Shown here: in pieces, positions 5,883 to 40,607 of the stretch
Position numbering within the stretch: position 1 is the stretch's first letter
Layout: the number at the start of each line of letters is the position of its first letter
Origin: Candidatus Thorarchaeota archaeon
Lineage (GTDB): Archaea; Asgardarchaeota; Thorarchaeia; Thorarchaeales; Thorarchaeaceae
Length of the DNA: 64,000 nt
Direction of reading: 5' to 3'
Assembly: GCA_004524445.1 (NCBI GenBank)
Contig: SDNP01000011.1
Coordinates: 4,943 to 68,942 of the forward strand
Notes under the pieces: model-generated
Seen by the model: only the letters and a program-made list of their open reading frames with translations
Database searches by the model: none
What the model was told of the DNA's origin: nothing
Translations under genes and position numbers: made by a program

Positions 5883-8372
5883 CTATGGCCAGTCATAGGG
5901 CTTTATCTCAGTCCAATCGAATCCCGTAGATGGTCCTGAATGGAGAACAAAATAGTAGAGACCGGTATCATAGCCACGAAGCTGGAGAACAGGACTGCTG
6001 GGAGTCACAAGAAACTCCTCCATTACGGTGAGATTTGAGGAGAGAACCATTCCAGAGAATTCGCCATTATGTAGTGTTTCGGAGATGAAGTCGAAAGCAA
6101 TCCCAGATTCGATGTAAATATACCCCTCAAGAAGCCCTCCAAAGGGGTCCCAAGGATTTGGTTCCCAATGATAGGTGTTACCCGGTTCGATTGGCTCATT
6201 TGCGTTGGTGGGCGACTCGGTGGTTGGAGTAACTCTCATAGTAATTGGAACAGATGTTTCATTTAGATTTTCTTTGATGAAGATGAGTTTGGTTATGGTG
6301 GTGGGACCCGCATCAGGATCTACTGTGTATCCTGGCCATGTACCGTTAACAATCTCAGTTGAGTAGGAATCATTTGTTCCGTCGGACCAAAACCGTAACA
6401 CGGTGATATTCCAATGAGAATATCCATCGCTCCAGTTCAGAAAGACGGAGAATGCCTGAGTGCTGTTCACCTCGATAACCTCATAGACTGACTCTCCGGA
6501 GTTCAACAAAACAGTATCACCAATTGTGTCATTATTGTATGTCATCTCAATGCTAGGAATGATTCGCATCGTTATCCGCCCGTCTATAGGACCTTCTGTC
6601 ACTGACTTGACCACCCAAATTCGAGATATCTGCTTCTCTGTTGATGGGTCGATGAAGATCTCACCACTCATTGTGGTATCATTCAATTGAACTGGAATGC
6701 TTCCATTAGTTCCATCCTCATAGAAGATAAGAACAATCACCGTCCAGTTTTGCGATGCTCCGCTATGATTCAACTGAATTCTGAAGGAGGTTGTATTGGA
6801 CACCTCAATCTCCTCTATGACTGCCCCGCCGCCACCTTGGACGCCCACTGTGTCATTGAGACTGCCGCCAGTATAGTTCAGACGAATGTGGGGCGTATAG
6901 ACCGGTACACCATTAGCTTGGTGCGAGTCAAGAAGAAGCCAACTGAGAAACAGGCTATAAATCTCAGACCATGTCATGTTTAGGGCTTTAGCGAAGGCAT
7001 CTTTCGGGTCCACATTCCGAGGGTCACCCCGGCCATAGTACTTCGTCCGATTGAAGACCTCTAACAGTGTTTCTGTACCAAACGATTCGTTGATGAATTT
7101 CACAAAGAGAAATGCGGCCATATACGAATCCCAAGAATGGTCCCAATCATGAAAGGCACCTGTGCCATTGATATCTCGAAAATGATCCAACCAGCTTAGT
7201 GACCCCAATCGATGAGCCATCTCATTCCATTCAGTCATGGTCATATTGGGATAGTTTCTAAGCATAGAGTAGACTGCCCAGAACTCAGCCATACCCTCAT
7301 CCCACCAATAGTCAGGTTCATGTAGAGGATAGTACGCGCCTCCACTAGAGTCTGTTCTTCGTTTGAACTGGAACAAATGCAGAAGTTCATGCTCACCTAC
7401 AACTTTGAGCTCTTCTTTCGTTGCATCCCTTCCAACTCTGATGACTATCTCACCATTGCTATTCGATGAGCCAGTTGACTCAGAACTCCCGCTTCGTACC
7501 AGTCTGATTTTAATCTCATTACCGGTTGCAGTTGCTGGATCAGTAAAGTTATGCTCCCGGAAGAAATTCAATGAAAAATTGATGTGTTCCTTGACAAGCG
7601 CTACGACAGATGCATTGACACCGGGTCCTGGCGTAATGGTTACGTTCTCACCCCGGTCATTTTCGGGACGTACTAATCCATCTGGCTCTGGGACTATCCT
7701 GATTCCGTTATAGATGAATACTTCTTCACCACCATATGTGCCAGTGGTCGTTAGAATCTCTACGTTTGGCTCACCGGGTGTTGCCATTGTTGATATCCAT
7801 GACTCCGAATAGTCATTTTCGTTCCCCATCAGCGAGATTGAGTCTTCTTCTGAGGAGGGTATATCAATACCTAACTCAGAGTCGGTCCAGTCCCCAAGTA
7901 CTTCGTCACCGTTCCCACCGCCATATCGCATGAAGCTAACAAGTCTTCCTTCAGAGTCGTGAAGGCCAACCTCATCGCCAGAAGAATCAAGTATTTCCGC
8001 TTCGTCAGTATGAATGGTGACTTGCCCATCACTAGCATCCAGATCATCGATGCCCTCACTCCATGAAATCAAAATGAAAAGAGATTCAGAATTGCCGCCA
8101 AAAACAGGAAGAATGATTCGATCCTCATCATAGGTTGTTACAATCCAATCTTCCATGTCGTCATGTCCAGTGGAGGTGTATAGCTCCACATAGGCATTGG
8201 TTGATTCAGTCCCAGGTCGAACTTCATTAATCAGGACATCCTGATAGGAGCTCGATTTTTCATCAACAAGCTCAACAGGGGGACTTATGTGGCCCTGCAT
8301 TAGCAGAATATAACTTACGGCAGCAACCCCGATTACAATGATTATGACAATTGCAGCAGCACGACGATTCAT
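5883..8372 (-). CDS. secreted or membrane-anchored lamin-tail-domain (LTD) plus MA-clan gluzincin-like protein with two C-terminal beta-domains
   Basis: GAGGT lies 7 nt before the ATG at 8372. The N-terminal anchor is AAAIVIIIVIGVAAV. There is an LTD-like VLINEV..AYVELYT segment, HELLH at 7377..7391 and WWDEGMAEFW at 7279..7308. Two paralogous domains of about 105 aa follow, and N-x-S/T sequons are numerous. Confidence 0.75.
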   Translation of the reverse strand: MNRRAAAIVIIIVIGVAAVSYILLMQGHISPPVELVDEKSSSYQDVLINEVRPGTESTNAYVELYTSTGHDDMEDWIVTTYDEDRIILPVFGGNSESLFILISWSEGIDDLDASDGQVTIHTDEAEILDSSGDEVGLHDSEGRLVSFMRYGGGNGDEVLGDWTDSELGIDIPSSEEDSISLMGNENDYSESWISTMATPGEPNVEILTTTGTYGGEEVFIYNGIRIVPEPDGLVRPENDRGENVTITPGPGVNASVVALVKEHINFSLNFFREHNFTDPATATGNEIKIRLVRSGSSESTGSSNSNGEIVIRVGRDATKEELKVVGEHELLHLFQFKRRTDSSGGAYYPLHEPDYWWDEGMAEFWAVYSMLRNYPNMTMTEWNEMAHRLGSLSWLDHFRDINGTGAFHDWDHSWDSYMAAFLFVKFINESFGTETLLEVFNRTKYYGRGDPRNVDPKDAFAKALNMTWSEIYSLFLSWLLLDSHQANGVPVYTPHIRLNYTGGSLNDTVGVQGGGGAVIEEIEVSNTTSFRIQLNHSGASQNWTVIVLIFYEDGTNGSIPVQLNDTTMSGEIFIDPSTEKQISRIWVVKSVTEGPIDGRITMRIIPSIEMTYNNDTIGDTVLLNSGESVYEVIEVNSTQAFSVFLNWSDGYSHWNITVLRFWSDGTNDSYSTEIVNGTWPGYTVDPDAGPTTITKLIFIKENLNETSVPITMRVTPTTESPTNANEPIEPGNTYHWEPNPWDPFGGLLEGYIYIESGIAFDFISETLHNGEFSGMVLSSNLTVMEEFLVTPSSPVLQLRGYDTGLYYFVLHSGPSTGFDWTEIKPYDWP

Positions 8373-8536
8373 ATCTATGACCTCAGATAACAAATCATTA
8401 TTTACTATAGTTAACTTAATATAACACTTCCGCTTCAACTTAGAGTGTGGCTATCTGCTAATGAGATAGAGTTCCAGCAGGAGAGGAGATGAAGAACAAG
8501 GAGTAGATATTGGTCAATCTGGGATTTCTTCAGGAA

Positions 8537-11167
8537 TTACCTACGCCTTTTCTTGATACTCCGCCACAAGCAGAATCGTCGTCGTCTTGCATGATGAATC
8601 ACAATGTTTCCACGCTGTAATTGACCGTATGGGTCAAATCCAGCCTCGTGGAAGAGCATACCATTTGAATCATAGATACGAATCTGAAAGACGTCCGTTC
8701 TTCCACGTCTGCCTTCGTCCCAGACATCTATTCTGAGATAGTAATCATTACCCAGCCACACGAATTGCTTCGTCTTGAAATTCACCTTGAAAATATAGCA
8801 GGTCCCCTCAAAGAACGCATGGTCATCAAGAATTGCCAGGCCAACAATCTTCGATGTCTTGACAAAGAATAGCCAGTCATCTTCCTGATAGATGTACACG
8901 GCATGCCCCCAAGGAGTTCCTGATTTCCTGTACTTAGCAAAGAAGGCAAAATGCCCCCATTCATCCTCCGAGTCCATGATCCATCCCGCCCCAGTTATGA
9001 AGTCACGAGAGGGCTCTGCAATAGTGATGGATACTGGAGAGGAATCCGGACCGGTATAGTACTCGTTGACATCTGACGGAAATACTACAACAACCGAGTA
9101 GTCACCTTCCGGAAGATTCGATATGACTACTGTAACGACTCCTAGTCCGGGGACATCCGTAGTATTGAGTTGATATGGTCCAAATACAATGACACTTTCA
9201 GAACTACTGGAGAAAATTAGAAATGAAACATATGCCTTTGAGATGTTGCCCAAGGATTCATCTTCGTCTTCGATAACTGTGGCACGAAGGGTGATGGTTT
9301 CAGAAGTTGCAGAGGCAACAGTCTGACCCGTATATCTTGCAGCTGCATCCTCTCTTGTGACAAGAAAACCGACAGCATCTGTTGAGCCAAAATAGGCAGA
9401 GTTACCCTCAAAGGAGGAGATCAATGAGTAGTCGCCCGCTGCTACATCTATTACTACTGACACATCAGCAAAGCCTTCAGAGTCAGTAATAGCGGATATG
9501 ATTACACCACCAAGCTCAAAGGATACAACTGCACCAGCAATTGGAGACTCAAGAGCGACATCGACCAATTGTGCTCTCAGATGTGCGATGTCAGAATAGG
9601 TCCCTGATGTATCGCCAATGTATAGAATCTGGGTTGCATTGACAATCAAAGAAACTAACTTTTCATTCTCAATGTTTCCAGCATAGTCTGTGCTTCTATA
9701 TGCAAATGTATGGTTTCCAATCACGGATATATGCAGTGGGTCAATGTAAGATAGCCAGTCCCCTGAGTCTATTTTGTATTCTATTTTCATCACACCGGAA
9801 CCAGATGAACCATCTGTTGCAGACAGAGAGAGTTCGGAGGTTGTTGAGATATAGAGCGGGGCAGTTCCAATAGGTGTCGGTGTTATCGTCAAAATTGTCT
9901 GGGGTGTGGTCTTGTCAATCTTGAGCGTGAATATCTGTACTTCTTCCACGTTTCCAACGAGATCTGTTGAGCAAAAGTGGATCTCAGTTATCCCTTCTAC
10001 AGATATTTCGAATGGCGAATGATACTCAGTCCATGTCACTTCATCGAAGCTGTAGAGAATAGTATCAACACCAGATTCCTCATCACTGGCAGACAGTGTT
10101 ACTGTCACATTTGATGTATACCAGTCATTCAATCCAAGACTGCCTTCAACATCAATGGTTGTGGTTGGCGGAGAGCTGTCGAACTCAATAACCTCGGTCT
10201 TTGTGGATTCAACATTGCCAGCCAAATCAGTCGAGTTGTAGTAGACTGTCACGATACCACTCGCTGCTACCTCGAACGGATCTTTGTAGATGACCCATTC
10301 TTCGCCATCAAGGCTATACATCGTCTGAGCAACACCTGAAATGGAGTCTGTCGCACTCAAGGTGACAATGAGTCCACCCTCCCCATCCTCTTCATAGGAG
10401 AATTCTGTTTGAGGTGCGGTTTTGTCAATTCTGATGAAAACTGTTTCCTCTAAGCGCAGACCCATATGATCTCTGATAATCCATCTTATCTCGTGCTCAC
10501 CTTCAGTTTCGAGGGTGAAGCTGTTTCCTACACGGAATGCATCGTAACTGTCGAAATCAACCGTATACTCAAATTGCGAGAGACCTGAATAATCATCCGT
10601 GGCGTTTAGAGTTACTTCCAGATCAGATAGCCACCAGTCATCGTTTCCCTCCATGCCTGAAATCTGCAAGTCCATCTCAGGAGGGGTAAGGTCTATTCCA
10701 ATGTAATGGACGTTTGTAGGTTCTACGTTTTCAGCACTGTCTGTGGCGTTATATTCCAGTATATGTATACCTTCTCCTTCTATTTCAATAATTGTGCCAT
10801 TTTCATAAGGAAGCCAATCGCCCGAATCCAAGCGATAAGCCCCGGTGGCGACTGATTTGTCTTTAAGCAAAAATTGTACTTCGACAGGCGAATATCCATA
10901 CCAGATATCATACCAAGGGGGTTCAACGTTGAGGCTGCTTTTTGGGGGCTCTTCATCGGGAGGTTCAATTACTTCAGCAGGTTCAACGGTGTATAGATTA
11001 TCTATATAAGAATCGTAAGTGCGCTTTTCGTGGGTTGGTGTAATGACCTCAGTATTTCTATCCGTCAGACCATGAAATGCTGGTGATGCAAGTGAAACTC
11101 CATTGAAAGCAATGATCAACAGGGCAAATGTGAGCAAAATGCTTGACAGTAGACGTCGATTGTTCAT
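8537..11167 (-). CDS. secreted multi-Ig-like-domain surface protein
   Basis: The signal peptide is MNNRRLLSSILLTFALLIIAFNGVSLA. Four repeats carry the motif Y-x-hD-x-x-x-W..Y......G.h.h.Y.StD.AGN.E. A further beta-domain region follows, and the C-terminal domain ends in GNIVIH plus a polybasic tail. Confidence 0.75.
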   Translation of the reverse strand: MNNRRLLSSILLTFALLIIAFNGVSLASPAFHGLTDRNTEVITPTHEKRTYDSYIDNLYTVEPAEVIEPPDEEPPKSSLNVEPPWYDIWYGYSPVEVQFLLKDKSVATGAYRLDSGDWLPYENGTIIEIEGEGIHILEYNATDSAENVEPTNVHYIGIDLTPPEMDLQISGMEGNDDWWLSDLEVTLNATDDYSGLSQFEYTVDFDSYDAFRVGNSFTLETEGEHEIRWIIRDHMGLRLEETVFIRIDKTAPQTEFSYEEDGEGGLIVTLSATDSISGVAQTMYSLDGEEWVIYKDPFEVAASGIVTVYYNSTDLAGNVESTKTEVIEFDSSPPTTTIDVEGSLGLNDWYTSNVTVTLSASDEESGVDTILYSFDEVTWTEYHSPFEISVEGITEIHFCSTDLVGNVEEVQIFTLKIDKTTPQTILTITPTPIGTAPLYISTTSELSLSATDGSSGSGVMKIEYKIDSGDWLSYIDPLHISVIGNHTFAYRSTDYAGNIENEKLVSLIVNATQILYIGDTSGTYSDIAHLRAQLVDVALESPIAGAVVSFELGGVIISAITDSEGFADVSVVIDVAAGDYSLISSFEGNSAYFGSTDAVGFLVTREDAAARYTGQTVASATSETITLRATVIEDEDESLGNISKAYVSFLIFSSSSESVIVFGPYQLNTTDVPGLGVVTVVISNLPEGDYSVVVVFPSDVNEYYTGPDSSPVSITIAEPSRDFITGAGWIMDSEDEWGHFAFFAKYRKSGTPWGHAVYIYQEDDWLFFVKTSKIVGLAILDDHAFFEGTCYIFKVNFKTKQFVWLGNDYYLRIDVWDEGRRGRTDVFQIRIYDSNGMLFHEAGFDPYGQLQRGNIVIHHARRRRFCLWRSIKKRRR

Positions 11168-11515
11168 TATATGGGCCACTACTCCATACGAAGGAGGTAG
11201 TTCTGGTTAATTGGTCTCTGTCTTCATGCATAGATTGGGGGTACCGATGACGTCATTCTCCCTCGTAGTGTTGAATATAATTGTACACTCATGGCTATTA
11301 GTGTTCTGATTTGTTCTAGCTCATAACAGGAAGCCATTGGAGCCTTAGCTGGTGAGTCGTTTTTGCAGTCAGCACCAATCGAGTAATCATTTCTCCAGCG
11401 AACATCTGATGATTCATTCCCGTCACGTGACATGAATTCATCTCAAAAATGGATGAGGTACCTGAAACTAAAGAACTATTGGTCATCAATCCATTATTAA
11501 CAGGAGGAAAGGCAT

Positions 11516-13813: not shown

Positions 13814-14665
13814 TCATGAATAGTAATCCAGCAGAATCCCCAGAAGTCCAAGAAAGATGAAGATAATGAATGCCTTATTCTCCGAACATTCTCCTAGCGT
13901 GCTTTCATGGACACCTATACCTCCGAGGTATGATTTCCAGAATAGCTCAATTAATGTCACCGGCAGTGTAAAGACAATCTGAATCCATGATAGGGTAGCT
14001 ATCTGATTTTCAAGGATAATCATTGCCAACTCAGGATTAGTGGTATCAATAGTGACTGTTGGAACGAACGTCCAAATGATGAAAATTCCTATCAGACTCA
14101 TAAGCAAGCTTGGTGCATAAGAATATCCCGTTACTGAGGCTGCATCCTCAAAATCCCACGAACTGCCACTGTCACACAACAGGTATGCAAGTAGACTCTT
14201 CACGAGCCAGCGAATAATCATTATGATTGGTACTACAAGGAGCAAGAGCATTAAGATTGAATTCGCTGCAAACGCGATCTCTTGCTCATAGGGTCCAGTA
14301 AACTGGAGCTTTTGAAACATTATGGCGGCAGAGAATGTGCCCATAACAGCACTCAGGACAATGATAAAGACAACACCTACATAGTCAGGGGCAGACGCGA
14401 TATTAGTCATAGCCTTGCGTGGGGAGGTGAAGACTTTTTGTAATCTCTTCCAGAACGGCCATTGCTCGTGGCGTTCAAATTTGCCTGTTAGATTCGTTTC
14501 GAAGCGTTCGGTTCTTTTCATAGACTTTGTATCTTCAAATGATGATATTTCTGCGCCACAGCCTTTGCAGAACTTGTCACCTTGTCTTACAGGGTTGCCA
14601 CAGATGTTGCATCTTCTTGCTGCACCCGGCCTCTCATTCCACGAATGGGGGTGATTCATACCCAA
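13814..14665 (-). CDS. zinc-ribbon plus Yip1-domain membrane protein
   Basis: The N-terminal CNICGNPVRQGDKFCKGCGAE is followed by a 5-TM Yip1-like region. Confidence 0.6.
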   Translation of the reverse strand: MGMNHPHSWNERPGAARRCNICGNPVRQGDKFCKGCGAEISSFEDTKSMKRTERFETNLTGKFERHEQWPFWKRLQKVFTSPRKAMTNIASAPDYVGVVFIIVLSAVMGTFSAAIMFQKLQFTGPYEQEIAFAANSILMLLLLVVPIIMIIRWLVKSLLAYLLCDSGSSWDFEDAASVTGYSYAPSLLMSLIGIFIIWTFVPTVTIDTTNPELAMIILENQIATLSWIQIVFTLPVTLIELFWKSYLGGIGVHESTLGECSENKAFIIFIFLGLLGILLDYYS

Positions 14666-27445: not shown

Positions 27446-30400
27446 TTGATAGTCCGTAGGCGGTTCTTTGCCGTCACTATTATGGCTCTACTCTCGCTTT
27501 ATGCTGTGGGGAGTATAGCTAAAAGTTTCGTGAATACGGGACAATCTGAGAGTATTACGCCGAGTTCCGAATTCTTTGATGAAACTCGCTTACGAAAGGA
27601 AGATGATTCTTCTGATTCTTTGTCGAAATACTCATTGTCTGACTCTGCACTCACCGGCACTCTGGACCCTGTAGAAGTTGAACAATCTGGATTCATAGCG
27701 ACAGGAAGCACATTTGCAAGAACAGACAATAGTTTCAATACAAATACTACACTCGGGATTGATAGGGCAAATGGATGGTTGGCTAGCCAAGCAGAAGCAC
27801 AAGTGTGGGGTCTTGAGAGAAGGTACGCTATTAACGGGACATTTGACGATGGCATACCTGGAACGTACGCTATGGTAAATGAAACTCCTGTCTACTATCC
27901 GTATGGTTGGAGCCCGAGCTACACCACTACAAACACTGGCCAAGCACAAGTAGCCGGATACGATGATTCAGGATATGCAATCTTGGAAAATCAAGGAAAT
28001 AAGGAGGGCCCGAGTGGGAACAAGTATACACATTATGCTGGCACGAAGATTCTCTGGAATCAAGAAATCACCAATCAGCCCTACACAAAGAACTTCACAC
28101 TAAACCTGAGATATCTGTACTCAAGAGGCCCCTTGGGTTCAGGAGTTCCTGGAGATTGTTCACTATCAGTGTTTGTCAATGATTCAGTAGTCTGGAGTCA
28201 GGCACTCCCTGATGTCGCAGGAAGGGGAATATGGATAGAAACTGGTGAAATTCCAATCAATATAGCAGATGCAGGAAATACCCTAGAATTTGCAGTTGGT
28301 ATTGTGATAGATGAAACAATGGCTTTGAATGCCGAGGAGGATTATAACGGGGATGAAATGGCAGAGGGGATCTCAAATACAGTCTATGTCACCGTCAATA
28401 TCGATGAAATCTCCTTTGTGGGCCTAAATCCCCCCTCATTTGAAGAAGTTGATTTTAATTTTTCCGCGGGCAATCAAACCACTTCGGTCACAGGTGCGTC
28501 TGGCAATGGAACTGCACTCATTTCCAAGAGTGACTATTGGTCTGTCGAGCAGTTGGACATTGCCTTTACTTCTAATGTCAGCGTATCTTTCAATTATGAT
28601 GCCTATTTACTCGAGCACAGGTTCCTCAACTCCAGCTTCACAACTAACACACATCAATTTGGTGTGAAGTACAGCATCTCGCATAATCAAAGTGCAAACC
28701 TCGAGTTATTCACATATGTTGGAACACAAGGCGAGTTTTTGGAATTCAACGTAACGATCAGGTATCCTACAGATTGGGAAAATGCAACTATCTACTCCCC
28801 GTTCTCAATCGATGTGACGACACAATGTCAAATAACGGAGGGTGAAGTGCGTATTCCAACAAGCCTTCTGGAAGATTTGGGTTGGTGGGATGTGGAGCTT
28901 CAGTCGCCAAATTATGCAAAATCTCTCAAAACCCAGATATATGACGATTCGACAGGCTGGACGGATGCTGTACTATTTAGGCCAGGAAACACAACCAGAA
29001 CATCAGTAGAGATAGGTACAACAGTAGAAACACCATCCATCTCTAATCCTGTAAATCTAACATGGTATCTGCCTAATGGTACTATTTGGTGGGATGAATC
29101 GACTACATCCGGAACTGCGGGATCTTTGAATTCTAGTCCAGTAGCGTTCGGCCCGACCAATACGACAGCCGGACCATGGAGCATTGAGATAGTTTGGTCA
29201 AACGGAACAGAAGTGGCTTATTCTTCCATTTCGTTTGCACTATATCATCAAGCCACCTTGACCCCCGTTTATAGCTTAATCGAGGGCGACGTTGATGAAA
29301 CAATCACCAACGTTCTGCGATTTGAAGACATATATTCTGGAGATTATCTGATGGCCGATGATGCTAACGTAATCGGCAATTGGTCTGGCACTTGGGTAGA
29401 TTTCATCCCCAACGTTGTAAAGAATTGGTGGGAGGGAGATTTCGATACTACAATTGTTGGCGGCGGGAACTTTACCGTACTTGTAAATGCGTCAAAGCCA
29501 TTCTATGATGATACAAGTTGCTTGTTCCAAATCACTTCCATATATGCCACTGAAATGCAAACTGATGCTCCCTCTGATGTCCCAGCAGAAATCAATTTCA
29601 ATGAACACTATTTGGTCAATATATCGTACAATCTCTCAAATGGCACTGGCATTGTAGATGCGACGATTGGTGTTGATTATACCGGACCAACGGGTGGACT
29701 GGACATAGATTCTCCAGTTCCTCAAACAACAGGAGAATACCAGCTAGAAATAACAGGACGCCAAACAGGAACGTATGTCATATCAATCGAGGCGTCAAAG
29801 GATTTCCACCACAGTCAAACTGATTCATTCACCCTAGAGGTATTAGAGGCGCCTACCACGCTCACTCAATTGAATGGTACAGCGGATTCTGTCAGATATG
29901 GTCAGGATTACAGATATGTCGTCAAATATGAGAATTCATCAGGAATCGGTCTAGAGAGTGCAGATATTAGTATAAGTAGCATAGACCCCTCAGTGGGCCT
30001 TGGTTTCAGTCCCACATCTGAGATCGGCGGGGGTTACTACTCTATATTGTTTAGCCCAACAGATACCTCAACATTCACAATTGTAGTCAAAGCAAACTTA
30101 TCAAACCATCAGACTCGCTTTGTCACTTTTACACTAACGGTATCCACTGTGCCAACTACATTGGCTTTGAATGCTACAAGCGAAACAATCTCCATTCAAG
30201 AGGTATTCGTTTTAGGACTAACCTTCATGGATGATTCTGGAGCTGGCATTCCTGGTGCGACTATCACAGCCCAAAACCCACCGGCCGACCTTCATATTTC
30301 ATCGGCGACTGATTATGGTGATGGAAACTATTCGATAGTCATAGATCCATTCTATTTCGGGACCTATCTACTCACTTTCTCTGCGTCCAAAACAAACCAT

Positions 30401-33304
30401 CAAACTGCAGCAAACTCCTTTTCGCTGATTGTTGACTCTGTCGGAACATCTTTGCTTCGACCAAACGGAACTGCAGACTCAATTTCATTTGGCGAAGACT
30501 ACCACCTCTTTGTAAGATATGTCAATAGTTCTGGATACGGCATAGAGGGCGCCAGTATTTCGGTGGTAGATACATCTCCTGAAACAGGGCTTGCCATAGG
30601 GGCTACCCAGGACGAAGGCGATGGATTTTACTCGATTCTTCTCTCGCCTAGCTTAACAGATACCTATAATCTGGTGATTGAAGCTAATTACACCAATCAC
30701 AAAGTGCAATATGTTACCTTCACTCTAACCGTCAACGATATACCAACTTCATTATTCCTGAACATATCGAGTATAACCATCTCCGTAAATGATCAGCTCG
30801 TAGTTGGGCTTATATTTGAGGACGAGTCCGGGACAGGCGTTCCAGGGGCGGTCATCACTCCACAGAGTCCTCCATCTGAACTTTCATTCTCCGCCACCAC
30901 TGACTATGGTGATGGTAACTACTCATTGGTTATCAATCCGATTTATTTTGGAAATTACCTACTAACGTTTTCAGCATCTAAAGCAAATTATCTAACGGGA
31001 TATGACTCATTCTCACTAACCGTTGATGAAGTAAACACAGTTTTGTTGCGGCAAAACGGAACAGCGGATTCCATCAAGTTTGGTGAAACCTATAATCTTG
31101 TTGTGAGATACGAAAATAGCTCGGGATATGGTATAGAGGGCGCATCTATCTCAATCTCCAGCATATCACCCGAGGAAGGCTTAGAAATTGGAATCACAGA
31201 TGATCTCGGCGATGGCTACTACTCCATTCTGCTAACTCCCACAACCGCTGATACATATACACTTGTAGTCAAAGCAAATATTACAAATCATAAGGTTCAG
31301 TTCGCCACGTTTTCCCTAACTATTAGTGAAATCCCAACTAGTCTAACTCCCTCACCGTCGAGCGCAACAATTGCTGTTGATTTGATGCAGACGGTTCTAC
31401 TCACATTCGAGGATGAGGAATCCAATGAGATAGAAGGTGCTACGATAACTGTACTGAACCTTCCTGATGGCCTGACCGTTTCGCAAATCGAAGAGGTGGA
31501 TAATGGGGTCTACCGTGTCATTCTTGACCCCAATGATGTCGGCACCTATTCGCTATCACTAAGGGCGACTCTCGTCAACTATCAAAACTCGACAGTTGGG
31601 TTCAGCCTGACGGTAAGAGAGATTCCAACTGACTTGTTGTTCATGGGTGGTGGTTCAGCAGCATCCGTAAACTTCTCTGACCCCTACACGCTAGAGCTGA
31701 TTTATGCAAGAACAGACCTTGGGGAGAATGTAACTGGAGCGACCATCAATATCACAATAAGCCAAGCAAATGGACCAGATTTCACTCTCACAACTCTTGG
31801 TGAGCTATACGCGATAACATTTGATACTTCAATTACTGGTTCTTGGACCATCACTATCCAAGCCGGTAAAGAGAATCATGAGAAGAAGAGTCGTGAATTC
31901 CAGTTGGCCATCGAAGCTGTTGAAACTAGCATTACAGATATCACATTGCAGGATGAGCTACTCTACGACCATACGTATGTATTCGATTACTATTACCTCA
32001 TTGATTGGAATAACACGGGCATCGACCAAGCTCATGTGACAGTGTCCGGAATTGATGCTGATTGGGTAGAGGTAATACCCAAGGGAGACGGACTTTACAC
32101 CATTAGTCTGACACCAACAAGCCTAGGACGACACTCGGCAGCCTTTCTTTTTGATAAGCCAGGTTATGTCAAGCAAAGAACAACTCTTCGTTTTGATGTG
32201 GAACAGGTAACAATCGGTATCGAAATCCTTAGTGAGCTCTCAGGCAATGCCGAATCTACCAAGACGTTAGAGCTCAGAATATACGAAATTGATAGCGGAA
32301 ACGCAGTTTTGAATGCCACCGCAACGTATCTTGTTATAGGATCTGAGAGTGGTTTGCTGGAACAGGGATTATTTACTGAAATGGGAGATGGTATCTACCG
32401 CGCCACATTCGCGATGCCTCCGGCAGATGATGAGGGTTATAGCTTAGAAGTCACCGTCAATAAGCCAAATCATGTGTTGGGTGCTTCGTTTGGCACATAT
32501 TCATTGAATCCCTATCTTAGTCAGGACCAAGTCTTGAATCAAATCATTCGAACATATGTTATTCCGCCAGCGGTGTTGGTGGTAGGTCTTATAGTTGCTT
32601 ATGGGGGATATCTTATCTACAGGAGAAGGAGAAGGGATGAAATCATCAAGCAGAATATTATCAAGAATATATTCAAGGATGCACAGAATCTCCTTGGAGC
32701 CTTGATACTCCATAGGAAGAGCGGAGTTCCTCTATATTCACGCATTATTAAAGGAGGCTTGGATGAAACGGTTGTTTCTGCATTTATTACCGCCATAACC
32801 CAGTTCAAGGCAGAATTCGACTTGGAAACAATTGGTGATGAATATGATGTTACCCCCATCTCAGATTTGATACGAATTGTACCCACAAGGAATTTGATAT
32901 GCGCATTCATCGTATTGAGAGACCCCAGTGAGCGACAGAAGCAAATGATGAAGGAATTCGCTCGGCAAATTGGATTCATTTGGGATGACATATATCAAGA
33001 CACACCATCCGAAATTCTTGATGATGCATCCAAGCGTCAATTCGATGAGTTATTCGATAACCTGTTAGATGGATCATTATTGAAGACTCACAAAATTGTT
33101 GATGAAAATGAGTTGCCTAGGCGAATGAAGTGTGTGCAAGAGGGTCTGGATAGAATTGATGAGGATCAATTCGAATTGCATGACTTGGCACAAGAGATTA
33201 CAGCTTGTGGACTTGAAGAGGGAAAGGCCTACAGCGTAATCATGGACGCATTACAAAACAATGTGATAATAGAGAAAGACGATGGGTCCTCCTCCAGTGA
33301 GTAG
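27446..33304 (+). CDS. giant (1952 aa) type-I surface protein: signal peptide, N-terminal beta-rich region, Ig-like repeats, one TM helix, and a cytoplasmic longin/roadblock-like plus winged-helix-like tail
   Basis: The signal peptide is MIVRRRFFAVTIMALLSLYAVG. Sequons are very abundant. Two-domain units of 197 aa occur in tandem. The TM helix VIPPAVLVVGLIVAYGGYLIY is followed by RRRRRD (32558..32640), then a cytoplasmic tail of about 225 aa. Confidence 0.85.
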   Translation: MIVRRRFFAVTIMALLSLYAVGSIAKSFVNTGQSESITPSSEFFDETRLRKEDDSSDSLSKYSLSDSALTGTLDPVEVEQSGFIATGSTFARTDNSFNTNTTLGIDRANGWLASQAEAQVWGLERRYAINGTFDDGIPGTYAMVNETPVYYPYGWSPSYTTTNTGQAQVAGYDDSGYAILENQGNKEGPSGNKYTHYAGTKILWNQEITNQPYTKNFTLNLRYLYSRGPLGSGVPGDCSLSVFVNDSVVWSQALPDVAGRGIWIETGEIPINIADAGNTLEFAVGIVIDETMALNAEEDYNGDEMAEGISNTVYVTVNIDEISFVGLNPPSFEEVDFNFSAGNQTTSVTGASGNGTALISKSDYWSVEQLDIAFTSNVSVSFNYDAYLLEHRFLNSSFTTNTHQFGVKYSISHNQSANLELFTYVGTQGEFLEFNVTIRYPTDWENATIYSPFSIDVTTQCQITEGEVRIPTSLLEDLGWWDVELQSPNYAKSLKTQIYDDSTGWTDAVLFRPGNTTRTSVEIGTTVETPSISNPVNLTWYLPNGTIWWDESTTSGTAGSLNSSPVAFGPTNTTAGPWSIEIVWSNGTEVAYSSISFALYHQATLTPVYSLIEGDVDETITNVLRFEDIYSGDYLMADDANVIGNWSGTWVDFIPNVVKNWWEGDFDTTIVGGGNFTVLVNASKPFYDDTSCLFQITSIYATEMQTDAPSDVPAEINFNEHYLVNISYNLSNGTGIVDATIGVDYTGPTGGLDIDSPVPQTTGEYQLEITGRQTGTYVISIEASKDFHHSQTDSFTLEVLEAPTTLTQLNGTADSVRYGQDYRYVVKYENSSGIGLESADISISSIDPSVGLGFSPTSEIGGGYYSILFSPTDTSTFTIVVKANLSNHQTRFVTFTLTVSTVPTTLALNATSETISIQEVFVLGLTFMDDSGAGIPGATITAQNPPADLHISSATDYGDGNYSIVIDPFYFGTYLLTFSASKTNHQTAANSFSLIVDSVGTSLLRPNGTADSISFGEDYHLFVRYVNSSGYGIEGASISVVDTSPETGLAIGATQDEGDGFYSILLSPSLTDTYNLVIEANYTNHKVQYVTFTLTVNDIPTSLFLNISSITISVNDQLVVGLIFEDESGTGVPGAVITPQSPPSELSFSATTDYGDGNYSLVINPIYFGNYLLTFSASKANYLTGYDSFSLTVDEVNTVLLRQNGTADSIKFGETYNLVVRYENSSGYGIEGASISISSISPEEGLEIGITDDLGDGYYSILLTPTTADTYTLVVKANITNHKVQFATFSLTISEIPTSLTPSPSSATIAVDLMQTVLLTFEDEESNEIEGATITVLNLPDGLTVSQIEEVDNGVYRVILDPNDVGTYSLSLRATLVNYQNSTVGFSLTVREIPTDLLFMGGGSAASVNFSDPYTLELIYARTDLGENVTGATINITISQANGPDFTLTTLGELYAITFDTSITGSWTITIQAGKENHEKKSREFQLAIEAVETSITDITLQDELLYDHTYVFDYYYLIDWNNTGIDQAHVTVSGIDADWVEVIPKGDGLYTISLTPTSLGRHSAAFLFDKPGYVKQRTTLRFDVEQVTIGIEILSELSGNAESTKTLELRIYEIDSGNAVLNATATYLVIGSESGLLEQGLFTEMGDGIYRATFAMPPADDEGYSLEVTVNKPNHVLGASFGTYSLNPYLSQDQVLNQIIRTYVIPPAVLVVGLIVAYGGYLIYRRRRRDEIIKQNIIKNIFKDAQNLLGALILHRKSGVPLYSRIIKGGLDETVVSAFITAITQFKAEFDLETIGDEYDVTPISDLIRIVPTRNLICAFIVLRDPSERQKQMMKEFARQIGFIWDDIYQDTPSEILDDASKRQFDELFDNLLDGSLLKTHKIVDENELPRRMKCVQEGLDRIDEDQFELHDLAQEITACGLEEGKAYSVIMDALQNNVIIEKDDGSSSSE
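29845..31617 (+). repeat. three in-frame tandem copies of a 591-nt (197-aa, two Ig-like domains) coding unit
   Basis: The N codon of the (L/P/Q)-NGTADS motif sits at 29873, 30464 and 31055. That is an exact 591-nt period, and the protein units are clearly alignable. Confidence 0.85.
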
Positions 33305-36301: not shown

Positions 36302-37129
36302 CTACTGACTCGTTCGCATCAGATAGTAATCGATTATACTCTCTTTCTTGATAATTGGAATGGCAAGTATTGCAATCAATACTAGGACTGCTGTGGCAAT
36401 GGCAGTGTAGCTGATCAACGCAATTGCAGCCTGTTTAATGGCAATTCCAACACTTGCCCAAATCACAACCAGACCATATGCAAAATCGTGCCGTAAGAAT
36501 ATCATCGATAGTGTAATGACCAATGCAATGATGATGACTGCAACCGTCCATAGTTCCTGAATCATTTGAGGAATTCCAGGAATCAAGACATTGAGTACGG
36601 ATGCGGTGCTGGCAATAGTGGCAAGCGAAATCCATCCAACATAGACGCTGACTGGCAAATGCACTGCTAGCTTCACACCAAGGGGAACCTCCGTTTCACC
36701 AATGCCAAGTCGCACATAGGTGAATAGAAGTGTAACCAGTAGGAGGACTATTGGCAACTCGGATAATACAAATAATGTTGGGTTACCAAACGAATAGTGG
36801 AATACTATCAGCCAAGAAATATTGAAAATTGCACCCACCAAATATAGGAAACTGATATCCTGAAGATACTCTTTTCCTCGTTCACTAGGTCTAACCTGGT
36901 AGATTGCGAAAGTAGCTAGAAGGATGTAGATAACTCCCCAAATCGCAAATACATAACCAGGGGGTGTGAATAGATTAGGATAAGAGTCTGCTACTTGACC
37001 AGTATTGACCCCGTTGAGAGGTAAAATGTTGGCCAGTGAATTGAAAACTATGGTTCCAAATATTGACACAATGTTAATAATCTGAAGGACCAGAGGGTTC
37101 GTTCTTGAAGACATGGAATCATTAACCAT
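36302..37129 (-). CDS. TspO/MBR-related polytopic membrane protein
   Basis: LPLNGVNTGQVADSYPNLFTPPGYVFAIWGVIYILL resembles the TspO-related family motif as I remember it. About 8 TM segments are predicted. Confidence 0.5.
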   Translation of the reverse strand: MVNDSMSSRTNPLVLQIINIVSIFGTIVFNSLANILPLNGVNTGQVADSYPNLFTPPGYVFAIWGVIYILLATFAIYQVRPSERGKEYLQDISFLYLVGAIFNISWLIVFHYSFGNPTLFVLSELPIVLLLVTLLFTYVRLGIGETEVPLGVKLAVHLPVSVYVGWISLATIASTASVLNVLIPGIPQMIQELWTVAVIIIALVITLSMIFLRHDFAYGLVVIWASVGIAIKQAAIALISYTAIATAVLVLIAILAIPIIKKESIIDYYLMRTSQ

Positions 37130-37309: not shown

Positions 37310-38371
37310 ATGGCAACTGAGCCGATAAGAAATGACGAATCAATGTTGAAGGAGGTCTTCTTGATAGATGAGGGCCTACTTCAGTTTCATTATAGCAACG
37401 ATTCTTCGGCCAGCGAGGATGATAAGGCGGTTCTTTCTTCGGGGCTGCTCACCGCGTTGCAGGACTTTAGCAGCCAAGCAAGATCTGGATCTCTGGAATC
37501 TTTTCTGACAGGTGATGAGTACTTTCTGTTTACAAAATGCCCAGAAACCGACAGAGTAGTTGTGGGAGTTTTTCATCGATTGGCTCCAGAAGAATTAGCT
37601 CGCGAGTCTCTTGAGAGGATTCAAGAGGTATTCAAGAGCGCTGATATCCCTGATGCATCCGGAAAACAACTGCCGGGTGATGAAAAACAAAGGCTCAGGA
37701 ACCTCATAAAAGAGATAGGCATTCATCTATTTGACAAAGAGTATTTCGAACTGCATATTGAAGAGCTGTTGAAAAATAGAAGCGACATCCCCTTGGCATT
37801 TCTTGTAGATACTACAGACAATTCGCTAGTTACACACTTTGCCCGACCCAAGCCACTCTTTCGGAAGAGCCAGCTGGATGATTTCCGTCTACTCTATTCA
37901 ACTCTAGAAAAATCTCTAACAAGCCTTGGTATTGCCACTGAGTATTCCTATTTCATAATCAAATCACAAGGCTATTCAGCTGCTTCATACAACTCAGTTC
38001 GATTTGCAAGCGTCGCTAGTGGAGCTATGAGAATCGATTCTGATGCGGTATTAGATGTCGCCATAAAAATGTGTGTTCCATCCGGTGAAATCCCGGATAT
38101 GGCAGATTTAGACCAAGGAGAAATAGAAGGCGTTTCGCTGTTATTCAATAATGGAATCCTGAAGCATGAGAGGGGAGAAAGACTTCCGTCTATGAGCCAA
38201 GTATATCTCTCGACTCTTGTCAATAATGCTGATGCGTTCTTCAAATCAGTCAATCGACGGGTCTTTACGAGATTCGATGTGTTCGGAGGAATAGCCCAAC
38301 CAAAGAGCATATCATTAATCCGAGAAGGGGATGGTAAGTCTCTAAGAGTCGAAATCAGACGTTTTCAATGA
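37310..38371 (+). CDS. protein with three tandem longin/roadblock-like modules
   Basis: GGAG lies 10 nt upstream. Three consecutive segments (aa 13-110, 158-255, 270-350) each show the order strand-strand-helix-strand-strand-strand(-helix). See the findings for detail. Confidence 0.6.
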   Translation: MATEPIRNDESMLKEVFLIDEGLLQFHYSNDSSASEDDKAVLSSGLLTALQDFSSQARSGSLESFLTGDEYFLFTKCPETDRVVVGVFHRLAPEELARESLERIQEVFKSADIPDASGKQLPGDEKQRLRNLIKEIGIHLFDKEYFELHIEELLKNRSDIPLAFLVDTTDNSLVTHFARPKPLFRKSQLDDFRLLYSTLEKSLTSLGIATEYSYFIIKSQGYSAASYNSVRFASVASGAMRIDSDAVLDVAIKMCVPSGEIPDMADLDQGEIEGVSLLFNNGILKHERGERLPSMSQVYLSTLVNNADAFFKSVNRRVFTRFDVFGGIAQPKSISLIREGDGKSLRVEIRRFQ

Positions 38372-38430: not shown

Positions 38431-39171
38431 ATGGAACAGACACCTAAGAAAATGACTTCAGATGATGAAGGCTCGCAGTTGGACGCTGTATTCCTTTACA
38501 TGGGGATTCTCGATGCGTATGAAGCTGTGGGAGTTGAGTTGATAGGGCCGGATGTCCTCGAGAATCATGTTCTCCCTCGAATGGTATACTATGTTAGAGA
38601 GTTCTTACCTGAGGTGTTCTCGGATCGTGCCAACGAACAGGATTTAGCTGCTGAACTACAGGCATTCTTGACGAACTTTCGTCAACGCGTTGATGATGCA
38701 CGTGGATCTGGAACAGCTGAGGGTTTGAACATGGAAGGCATATGGAAATTGAGAGCTGCCATTTTTGGCTATGAGAGTGTCTTCATCAACATTCTGGGTG
38801 AGGCAGCAATCAGGGATTATGTGTTCATACGAATAGCCGACATTCTTTCGGCCTATTTACCCGATAACCTTTTGGATCCGAATAGCCCCTTGGAAAACAA
38901 ACTGCGAGAGTATGCCAAATTTCTAACGGATCATGATTTTGTAAAATTTGCACGGGTAGAATCCAAGGGAGATACTATAGTAGTTGCAACCAACAACTGT
39001 GCATTTTCAAGAATCCACGATTCAGAAGCATACACAAACCTGAATGTGCGATTCTGTCCGTGGGGGATGATTGGTTCAGCAATCGTAGCAGCCCACGAAG
39101 GCAAAGAAACAGTTCTTGAGTCGAGCTTGTTCACCACAAGAGGAAGTGTAAGTAATATCGCAAAGAAATGA
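38431..39171 (+). CDS. V4R / Bet3(TRAPP)-like domain protein
   Basis: A helical N-terminal part is followed by DTIVVATNNCAFSRIHDS..NLNVRFCPWGMIGSAIVAAHEGKETVLESS. This is V4R-like but lacks the distal Cys pair. Confidence 0.5.
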   Translation: MEQTPKKMTSDDEGSQLDAVFLYMGILDAYEAVGVELIGPDVLENHVLPRMVYYVREFLPEVFSDRANEQDLAAELQAFLTNFRQRVDDARGSGTAEGLNMEGIWKLRAAIFGYESVFINILGEAAIRDYVFIRIADILSAYLPDNLLDPNSPLENKLREYAKFLTDHDFVKFARVESKGDTIVVATNNCAFSRIHDSEAYTNLNVRFCPWGMIGSAIVAAHEGKETVLESSLFTTRGSVSNIAKK

Positions 39172-39189: not shown

Positions 39190-39618
39190 ATGCAAATGAT
39201 AACTGGTGACCAAATCGCTACAATAGTATTTGTAATAGAAACCATTGTATTCATTTCCATAATGATTGGATGGATATATGGCTCTAAACGGATGGATTAT
39301 GACACCCACCACAGGATGATTTATCCAGCTGTGTTGATTCATCTGATCACCGTAAGCGCATGGATGATACCGCGTGCTATGCAGCTCGCCGAAGAAGGAC
39401 TATTCGCAGACCCTATAGCCAATTGGTATCAGATTGTCCATGATGTAGTGGGCTTTGTCGCAATAGGCCTGGGAGTAGTATTAGCAGTGACTTTTCTTGT
39501 CAAGTCGGGAATGCCACTAAATATTCTGCAAAAAGCCAAACCATTGATGTGGTTGACACTTGCTTTATGGTTGGTATCGTTTATTCTGGGTATTATTGCG
39601 TACCTAGCTCGGTTTTGA
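39190..39618 (+). CDS. 4-TM membrane protein (weakly DUF420-like)
   Basis: The gene starts 18 nt after the V4R-like gene, with GGAG upstream. Conserved-looking His residues occur in TM2 and TM3 (THHRMIYPAVLIH, IVHDVVG). Confidence 0.5.
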   Translation: MQMITGDQIATIVFVIETIVFISIMIGWIYGSKRMDYDTHHRMIYPAVLIHLITVSAWMIPRAMQLAEEGLFADPIANWYQIVHDVVGFVAIGLGVVLAVTFLVKSGMPLNILQKAKPLMWLTLALWLVSFILGIIAYLARF

Positions 39619-39702: not shown

Positions 39703-40035
39703 GTGCATGTTTTGGCCTCTACTACCTACGGACGGCTGTCCCCCATCCAACTTGATGAATTGAAAAAGCTCAAAGAGATCAAAGAAGCTTTAGATAGGCT
39801 GAAACGAAAAGGTATCTCTGCGGATATCCCCATCTGCCCCGTCTGCAAGAACCATAGACTTGTCAGGCTAACATCATATTATGACTTGGGCTATATTGGA
39901 AGCTTCCATCCAGCTTACTACTGTCTTGATTGTGGTTGGTATGGCAGGACAACTATCGTCATGTCCAATAGACCTGAGAAGAATGAAGTTCTTGAAGACA
40001 TGATATTTGCCTTCTCAGACCTAATGGAAGAGTAG
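39703..40035 (+). CDS. zinc-ribbon protein, hypothetical
   Basis: CPVCKN...CLDCGW (C-x2-C...C-x2-C) follows a short coiled segment. The GTG start is uncertain. Confidence 0.45.
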   Translation: MHVLASTTYGRLSPIQLDELKKLKEIKEALDRLKRKGISADIPICPVCKNHRLVRLTSYYDLGYIGSFHPAYYCLDCGWYGRTTIVMSNRPEKNEVLEDMIFAFSDLMEE

Positions 40036-40057: not shown

Positions 40058-40354
40058 TTATTCTTCATCGATTCGAGTTAGCTCGAAAATTACGGGGTTG
40101 AAGCCATCTGGACAAGCATGTGTTGCTGAACATTGATCTTCTAGCCATGGAAATCTTGCATTGTATGTCATGGCGTACACTTTAGGCATCATTGAATAGA
40201 GGGCACTTAGACATATTTTGCCCTTCACTTCTTCACCTGTGAAGATTATCTCATCCCCAACTTTGTGTCCCGCTGCACACTCACCCTCTTGAGAAATGAC
40301 GCTACACCGAATCTGCCAGGGTTTCTGTCTAATGCATTCTTCATTCATGGGGTT
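40058..40354 (-). CDS. TIGR04076 family protein
   Basis: CAAGHKVGDEIIF...CLSALYSMMPKVYAM..ARFPW...CPDGFNPVIFELTR is present. I placed the start at the internal ATG. Confidence 0.7.
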   Translation of the reverse strand, partial: NPMNEECIRQKPWQIRCSVISQEGECAAGHKVGDEIIFTGEEVKGKICLSALYSMMPKVYAMTYNARFPWLEDQCSATHACPDGFNPVIFELTRIDEE

Positions 40355-40607
40355 CATCTCTTTCGAATTATATTCTGAGCTCCCATATAGACTTTGTACC
40401 TGCGGTGAACTAGCATTCAAACCATGATTGTACTTCTGTCTTTACGAGGTCGGATTTCTCCCTATCCACCAACGGGTAAATGCCATAACAATCTATTGTG
40501 GTCATTTCTTTGGGATGAAACTCTCTCTATGCTATTCCATTTCGCTGATCCTCTAAGGAAATGGCTAGTTCTATGATGACGCCCTCGTGTCCGTGAAGCC
40601 TATTTGT

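Follow-up and report, generated by a model that had tools for sequence, protein, structure and literature searches.

The gene at positions 37310..38371 (+ strand) of the 64,000-nucleotide stretch of contig SDNP01000011.1 from an Asgard archaeon (below, the window) encodes a 353-aa protein in which, judging by its structural model, three consecutive modules of the longin/roadblock fold are close to certain. Its best matches among solved structures are the tri-longin-domain (TLD) subunits of eukaryotic guanine nucleotide exchange factors (GEFs) for Rab GTPases. The gene belongs to a fixed three-gene module, which comprises the tri-longin gene, a gene for a Cys/His-bearing partner and a gene for a small membrane protein (the 4-TM protein). 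The combined data are best explained by a minimal archaeal tri-longin-domain protein, encoded in a conserved operon, that is related to the TLD exchange factors and of pre-eukaryotic origin, and we would give this explanation an even chance. Specific homology to the TLD lineage, taken by itself, appears rather likely.

Three longin/roadblock modules in one chain

The open reading frame (ORF) starts with ATG in the ORF listing, and its boundaries, strand and length are those of the preliminary description of this DNA, which had been made from the letters alone. Codons 1-11 (37310..37345) are missing in almost all homologues, and most of the latter start at the residue matching M12 in the family alignment. 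The annotated start is perhaps 33 nt too far upstream, with translation beginning at the ATG at 37343 and not at 37310.

At 90% identity, the homologues of the tri-longin protein group into at least 59 protein clusters; where a cluster is named, it is mostly as a "hypothetical protein" from metagenome-assembled genomes (MAGs) labelled Thorarchaeota. An exhaustive HMMER search yielded 43 family representatives at 50% identity, including full-length relatives that are 21-29% identical to the window protein, and some of the distant homologues are labelled Heimdallarchaeota. The taxon names of loci and homologues used here are simply the labels that the MAGs carry. The archaeal source that had been assumed in the preliminary description is thus correct, the organism being an Asgard archaeon. 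A profile search aimed at widening the family gave no new lineages, domain fusions or eukaryotic proteins among the matches listed.

The AlphaFold2 (AF2) model, calculated from a 53-sequence family alignment, has a mean predicted local distance difference test score (pLDDT) of 83.4 and a predicted TM-score (pTM) of 0.71. By the DSSP assignment of secondary structure, the modules span aa 13-110, 162-255 and 271-351. The first module, longin domain 1 (LD1; 37346..37639, +), is of the canonical longin type: strands 13-20 and 23-29 are followed by helix 44-56 and strands 64-67, 70-76 and 82-89, and helix 94-110 closes the domain. The LD1-LD2 linker (aa 111-161; 37640..37792, +) contains two helices, 123-141 and 143-154. 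The second of these precedes LD2 (37793..38074, +), which is of the roadblock type and consists of strands 162-167 and 172-178, helix 186-205, strands 212-219, 222-228 and 232-237, and a final helix 244-255. In LD3 (38120..38362, +), strands 271-279 and 284-289, helix 296-315 and strands 321-326, 332-339 and 344-351 are found; its last element is a strand ending at residue 351, without a terminal helix, and the domain was assigned to the lamtor subtype by comparison with the description of TLD proteins in PMC8833172. The second and third modules are modelled at pLDDT above 90 (91-96 for LD2 and 87-97 for LD3), and in LD1 residues 31-70, helix included, have pLDDT of only 48-66.

The preliminary description had proposed three such modules from the periodicity of hydrophobic and polar residues. 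The model bears this out: all 20 of the 20 secondary-structure strings listed there fall on DSSP elements of the predicted type, and only the boundaries of the last two modules shift to the values given above. The longin/roadblock signal is above chance, as the family is conserved and the longin/roadblock matches in Foldseek reach probability 1.0. Between the three modules no sequence similarity can be detected (hhalign probabilities <1% for all three), and therefore the repeat is structural; a sequence-level internal repeat is ruled out.

LD1 is the most conserved module (2.35 bits per column, with 3.1 bits in its helix, against 1.6-1.9 bits elsewhere). The helix carries the motif LSSGLLSAIQxFSxxARS, in which A49 and R58 are invariant. 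In comparison with the distant group of homologues, LD1 retains 34% identity, whereas LD2 and LD3 retain 15-17%. Outside the modules, I133 in linker helix 123-141 is conserved at 90% or more across the whole family. In TLD GEFs, the pair of LD1 domains forms the catalytic layer (PMC8833172).

A string resembling the conserved LD1 helix of the window protein (SSGLLTALQDF) occurs elsewhere in the window, in the cytoplasmic tail of a 1952-aa repetitive surface protein (27446..33304, +), as VSAFITAITQF. A relationship of this tail to LD1, which would make it a fourth longin-like domain, was rejected as not significant (hhalign E 0.15; no Pfam or PDB match); the tail may still be another membrane-tethered longin-like domain.

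Similarity to tri-longin RabGEF subunits

In the Foldseek search of PDB, ranks 1-22 are all occupied by TLD RabGEF subunits, namely Mon1, Ccz1, Fuzzy, Inturned, HPS1 and HPS4, precisely the proteins to which the window protein had been likened before any structure was predicted. These matches have E-values from 1.1e-9 to 2.8e-4 and probability ~1.0, and their alignments, of 369-496 columns, are full-length. They come from Mon1-Ccz1 complexes of fungi, fly and human, from Fuzzy-Inturned/CPLANE, and from HPS1/HPS4 of BLOC-3. Next in the list are the VAMP7 longin domain, Bet5/Trs23 of TRAPP (2j3t_C), sigma subunits of the adaptor (AP) complexes, C-terminal domains of Rag proteins, and SRX. Roadblock3 of an Asgard archaeon (Prometheoarchaeum) matches one module, with TMt 0.74.

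The cryo-EM study of Mon1-Ccz1 (PMC8833172) describes LD1 as a canonical longin domain, LD2 as a domain of the roadblock type to which a helix is added N-terminally, and LD3 as a lamtor-type domain without a helix, which is supplied by alphaX of the LD1-LD2 linker; the alphaX-betaX linker is considered the defining feature of the TLD family. At the level of secondary structure, the order of subtypes in the archaeal protein (longin, helical linker, roadblock, lamtor) agrees with this definition. In the model, helix 123-141 is a candidate equivalent of alphaX, and helix 143-154 is a candidate for the N-terminal helix of the roadblock-type LD2.

Some relatives of the window protein come close to Pfam thresholds. 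In the relative P0071, which shares 34% identity with the window protein, LD1 reaches 23.6 bits (E 6.5e-5) with PF19031 Intu_longin_1, a family defined as "First longin domain of INTU, CCZ1 and HPS4", whose gathering score is 23.7. LD2 of another relative, P0085, scores 22.4 bits (E 1.1e-4; cut-off 23) against PF03259 Robl_LC7 and covers 87 of the 91 profile positions, and LD2 of P0079 has a weak match to MAPKK1_Int/LAMTOR3. The Fuz_longin_1 family (PF19036) is matched at E 0.079 in one of the 43 members, not traced among the 30 that were scanned individually. These near-threshold matches fall on the corresponding domains and are supportive, not conclusive.

A fixed three-gene module

The genomic context was compared in 28 related loci obtained by three routes: contigs with homologues of the tri-longin protein, a GTDB species genome scan, and contigs with homologues of the partner. 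In all 28 loci the next gene after the tri-longin gene is that of a 246-aa partner protein, which in the window lies at 38431..39171 (+), 59 bp downstream of the tri-longin gene. A homologue of the 4-TM protein adjoins the pair in 27 of the 28 loci, the exception (L012) being a locus that ends too early. In the window, this third gene (39190..39618, +) is located 18 bp downstream of the partner gene and encodes a 142-aa, DUF420-like membrane protein. In three Heimdall-type loci (L005, L024, L025) the 4-TM gene is on the opposite strand, still adjacent, and the module is kept there although the identity of the tri-longin protein drops to 21-26%.

The loci carrying the module are labelled as Thor-, Heimdall-, Hod- and Freyarchaeal; they include two Hodarchaeales-labelled loci (L021, L027) and the complete genome of Freyarchaeum deiterrae (L026, CP147778.1). 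When the same loci are compared, the partner is 43-57% identical and the tri-longin protein 21-40%. PADLOC and NCBIfam did not recognise any of the main genes of the module.

Downstream of the triad, a fourth gene (39703..40035, +) encodes a 110-aa zinc-ribbon-like protein with weak zinc-ribbon Pfam matches only. It is present at this place in 9 of the 28 loci and is frequent in the Thor-type ones, which makes it a possible further member of the module. In the Freyarchaeum deiterrae locus, a Sec23/24-like gene (8838..10382; Sec23_BS, weak Sec23_trunk) is located about 2 kb downstream of the module, and in locus L003 an arrestin-N-like gene is located about 6 kb upstream of it.

The AF2 model of the partner (pLDDT 85.6, pTM 0.83) has a helical N-terminal half and a C-terminal half composed of helices and four strands. 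Across lineages the partner is 43-91% identical, and residues C190, H196, C209 and H222 are invariant. Its Foldseek matches are BcsD (E 0.034, probability 0.99), the V4R sensor domains of DmpR, PoxR and MopR (E 0.07-0.2, probability up to 0.99) and Bet3-Trs33 (E 0.37). These matches are weak but consistent with one fold group, as V4R, H-NOX and BcsD are the structural relatives named by Tran et al. (PMC10933270) for Thor-TRAPPC3, a Zn-binding, cavity-forming dimer in which the sheet and a helix are linked by the metal site. Neither the partner nor its 45 relatives have a Pfam match to V4R, TRAPP or any other family at E up to 1, and the partner has no match to PDB sequences, Thor-TRAPPC3 included. 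Thus, of the TRAPP-like neighbour announced in the preliminary description, the weak fold-class match remains (E 0.03-0.4 in Foldseek) and the sequence match does not; calling the partner TRAPP-like is plausible at the fold-class level only.

The 142-aa protein, which we read as having four transmembrane helices, aligns with 127 of the 130 positions of Pfam PF04238 DUF420 at 20.3 bits (E 7.3e-4), below the gathering score of 30.5 bits. DUF420 includes CtaM, an assembly factor required for active cytochrome (heme-copper) oxidase (PMC8239418). Among seven sequences compared (the window protein and those of L001, L003, L005 and L023-L025), one His, read as lying in the third membrane helix, is kept in all seven; six also keep an HH pair close to where the second membrane helix begins. 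From the sequences, a role of these His residues as heme ligands is possible.

Arguments against the relationship and alternative explanations

A number of observations weigh against a kinship with the TLD subunits. At the sequence level, the window protein has zero Pfam matches at E up to 1, so that it falls into neither of the TLD families PF19031 and PF19036, nothing in NCBIfam, and no significant PDB match. Searches of solved structures with phmmer and hmmsearch, for which the protein itself, two family profiles and the relative P0071 were used, also gave nothing significant; the best insignificant profile matches were dynein light chain roadblock (E 0.49, for LD3) and ribosomal uL24 (E 0.04, spurious). 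The borderline score against Intu_longin_1 is reached by only one of the 43 family members. At the structural level, full-chain TM-scores to TLD subunits are 0.22-0.30, with root mean square deviations of 17-21 Å: the domains match those of TLD proteins in series, but their relative arrangement, as modelled, does not superpose on the TLD triangle. The same pTM of 0.71 makes the domain arrangement in the monomer model only moderately reliable. The LD1-LD2 linker of the model contains no betaX strand, and the LD1 helix, being the most conserved stretch, is yet modelled at pLDDT of about 50.

The genomic data add to these objections. No second tri-longin gene was found in the 28 loci, and 17 genomes yielded one match per genome, in a search by family-specific peptide patterns that would miss a divergent paralogue. 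Neither the 64-kb window nor any of the 28 related loci was found to have a gene for a Ras-superfamily GTPase. Pfam detected no such GTPase among the window ORFs of 110 aa or more, a set in which the giant surface-protein gene was represented by its C-terminal 301 residues, and tblastn with H-Ras and Arf1 gave nothing at E <1e-4 for the window or for any of the loci, where the search reached 6-10 kb from the module. MglB-type genes are usually situated beside a GTPase gene. The window protein, having no match to PF03259 and no adjacent small-GTPase gene, does not qualify as an MglB-like Roadblock/LC7 protein in this respect either.

Hence the eukaryotic TLD architecture, as proposed in the preliminary description, stands as far as the fold and the order of subtypes are concerned; it does not extend to a Pfam match of the window protein, to the superposition of full chains (TM 0.22-0.30) or to a second subunit. 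As to the GEF function, we can only infer it, because there is no nearby GTPase gene, no second TLD gene and poor superposition (TM ~0.25); such a function is less likely than not.

Many of these observations would agree with a convergent multi-roadblock scaffold, that is, a member of the MglB/LC7-like superfamily which acquired its three domains independently of the TLD proteins and serves as a dimeric platform, not as an ancestor of Mon1 and Ccz1. On this explanation, the Foldseek ranking would simply reflect the fact that no solved chain other than the TLD subunits carries three such domains in succession. The low TM-scores in spite of good E-values, the missing sequence similarity between the modules, the absence of a match to TLD families in the window protein and the single subunit all point in this direction, and so do two further facts: single-domain longin/roadblock proteins are likewise found by Foldseek at probability 1.0, and LD2 of a relative is closest to the generic Robl_LC7 family. 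On the other hand, the longin-roadblock-lamtor order combined with a helical LD1-LD2 linker is a pattern specific for TLD proteins, the single near-threshold match of LD1 is to the TLD-specific PF19031 and not to a generic longin family, and the family is present in Heimdall- and Hod-labelled loci, from groups to which the eukaryotes are described as most closely related. On balance, we regard convergence as rather unlikely.

The second alternative is a cofactor or redox module acting without a GTPase. The three genes would then form a unit at the membrane for sensing or delivering a hydrophobic cofactor (heme/tetrapyrrole, lipid or metal); the ligand would be bound by the V4R/H-NOX-like Cys/His protein and accepted at the membrane by the DUF420/CtaM-like protein, with the tri-longin protein as a structural adaptor. 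The full-length, if sub-cut-off, DUF420 match and several neighbours hint at redox or cofactor biology and speak against a GTPase role, and the conserved His residues of the 4-TM protein would fit this hypothesis. In the two Hod-labelled loci, the module is directly upstream of, and on the same strand as, a DOMON-COX3-COX2-COX1-COX4-SCO1 operon of heme-copper oxidase genes (7364..12738 in L027 and about 8455..12879 in L021), and in L023 it is beside a DOMON-cytochrome b561 gene. In the window, a TspO/MBR membrane protein gene (36302..37129, -; Pfam 26.7 bits, cut-off 24) is divergent from the tri-longin gene, and TspO genes are also found within a few kb of the module in four other loci (L006, L009, L019, L028); TspO/MBR is a tetrapyrrole-binding family. 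The invariant C190, H196, C209 and H222 of the partner, its far better conservation than that of the tri-longin protein, and the lack of a GTPase gene nearby would fit as well.

However, neither the TspO nor the COX neighbours are shared by the family as a whole, and oxidase genes are absent beside the module in most loci, the window included. For this reason we treat the cofactor hypothesis as a rival, or as a complementary input, and not as the best explanation. In addition, neither the DUF420 nor the V4R assignment reaches its threshold, and we know of no cofactor-assembly system that uses longin domains. The cofactor hypothesis thus appears unlikely.

Finally, a tandem PAS/GAF/Cache-like small-molecule sensor, comparable to the PAS-GAF-PHY part of phytochromes or to double-Cache proteins, is very improbable: phytochrome photosensory modules and tandem PAS/dCache proteins do appear in Foldseek at E 4e-4 to 2e-3, but with probability 0.3-0.85 and TM 0.13-0.23, ranked under the 22 TLD chains, while the strand order and helix placement fit longin/roadblock, none of the 43 members has such a Pfam match at E up to 1, and the protein has no output domain.

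Possible mechanism and significance

If the window protein is a minimal relative of the TLD subunits, it would dimerise edge-to-edge via its beta-sheets, as longin/roadblock proteins do, and the dimer is likely to be a homodimer, because only one gene was found. The dimer would bind the product of the adjacent 246-aa gene, and the 4-TM protein would hold the complex at the cytoplasmic membrane. The conserved face of LD1 could then offer one of the many small GTPases of Asgard archaea a platform for docking or regulation, the V4R-like pocket of the partner supplying a small-molecule, lipid or metal input.

A bolder version, which we consider improbable as a whole, is that the module is a surviving pre-eukaryotic longin-based Rab exchange factor. 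It would be a single-gene homodimer predating the duplication into Mon1-type and Ccz1-type subunits, with a Bet3/V4R-fold partner, a pairing later split between TLD GEFs and TRAPP, and with a heme- or ligand-binding 4-TM anchor, and it would couple the state of the membrane or the redox state to the activation of an Asgard small GTPase.

TLD RabGEFs (Mon1-Ccz1, BLOC-3, Fuzzy-Inturned) control the identity of endosomes, lysosomes and cilia. The literature searched treats them as eukaryotic only, with the duplications of the family traced to before the last eukaryotic common ancestor, and the papers on TLD structures do not mention archaea. Known previously from Asgard archaea were single longin, roadblock and TRAPPC3-like proteins (PMC10933270), and a 2026 review names only longins and TRAPPC3. 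Our literature search revealed no archaeon for which a tri-longin chain has been described, papers that mention both Asgard archaea and Mon1 included, although a mention in a large catalogue of eukaryotic signature proteins (ESPs) or in supplementary tables is possible. What is new is thus a prokaryotic, minimal and probably homodimeric tri-longin protein with new operon partners, and a machine regarded so far as specific to eukaryotes could plausibly have its prokaryotic forerunner in this protein.

If so, the archaeal version would provide an outgroup and a minimal model for the TLD GEF family. Three questions would become testable: which Asgard GTPase is the target, whether the ancestral complex was a homodimer, and whether the partnership between longin and Bet3 folds is older than eukaryotes. 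The fixed operon also offers two unstudied partner proteins.

Other features of the window

Downstream of the module and convergent with it, the gene at 40058..40420 (-) encodes a small protein rich in Cys that belongs to TIGR04076 (74.5 bits), an uncharacterised family. At 13814..14665 (-), there is a gene for a membrane protein with a zinc ribbon and a Yip1 domain (Pfam Yip1, 49.6 bits); in eukaryotes, Yip1-family proteins interact with Rab GTPases. Two further genes encode large proteins that are likely secreted or located at the surface, one of 851 aa (5883..8438, -), in which a Lamin Tail Domain match stays under the cut-off (25.2 bits, cut-off 34.3), and one of 880 aa (8537..11179, -).

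Comparison with known systems

Asgard archaea are rich in longin and roadblock domains (PMC10933270), and the basic fold of the modules is common to the known prokaryotic and Asgard Roadblock/LC7 and longin proteins, such as MglB, Asgard RB/RBLC7 and LAMTOR-like proteins; LD2 of one family member is nearly a member of Pfam Robl_LC7. The known proteins of this group, however, are single-domain or fused to a GTPase (PMC10933270), whereas here three subtypes are fused in one chain and the vicinity is GTPase-free.

The 4-TM protein has the same length as DUF420/CtaM proteins and aligns with their profile over the full length, and CtaM being an oxidase assembly factor, the heme-copper oxidase operons that the 4-TM gene adjoins in the Hod-labelled loci add to the likeness. 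In contrast, the archaeal protein scores under the DUF420 cut-off, most loci with the module lack oxidase genes, and a link with longin domains is unprecedented.

The TRAPP core, together with Thor-TRAPPC3, resembles the module in that longin-fold modules are combined with a Cys/His protein that is, by weak matches, Bet3/V4R/BcsD-like, and Bet5/Trs23 of TRAPP is itself among the structural matches of the tri-longin protein. The differences are that the archaeal partner has no sequence match to Thor-TRAPPC3, V4R or TRAPP proteins, being linked to them by Foldseek matches at E 0.03-0.4, and carries an additional helical N-terminal half of ~120 residues; moreover, the longin subunits of TRAPP are separate proteins, whereas the archaeal longin modules are in one chain.

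As for the TLD subunits themselves, these are larger, roughly 400-600+ aa, than the archaeal protein, which has ~340 aa and no long loops. TLD GEFs are heterodimers of paralogues, whereas on the archaeal side one gene per genome was found, so that any dimer would be a homodimer, and the archaeal model differs from them by the missing betaX strand and by a TM-score of ~0.25. The TLD GEFs act on Rab GTPases and have no operon partners of the kind seen here, whereas the archaeal gene is in an operon with V4R-like and 4-TM proteins, with no GTPase gene found nearby. At the same time, the archaeal protein shares with the TLD subunits three longin-type domains per chain, the same order of subtypes and a helical LD1-LD2 linker; the TLD subunits are its best structural matches in PDB, and LD1, which is the most conserved domain of the archaeal family, is the catalytic layer in the eukaryotic one.

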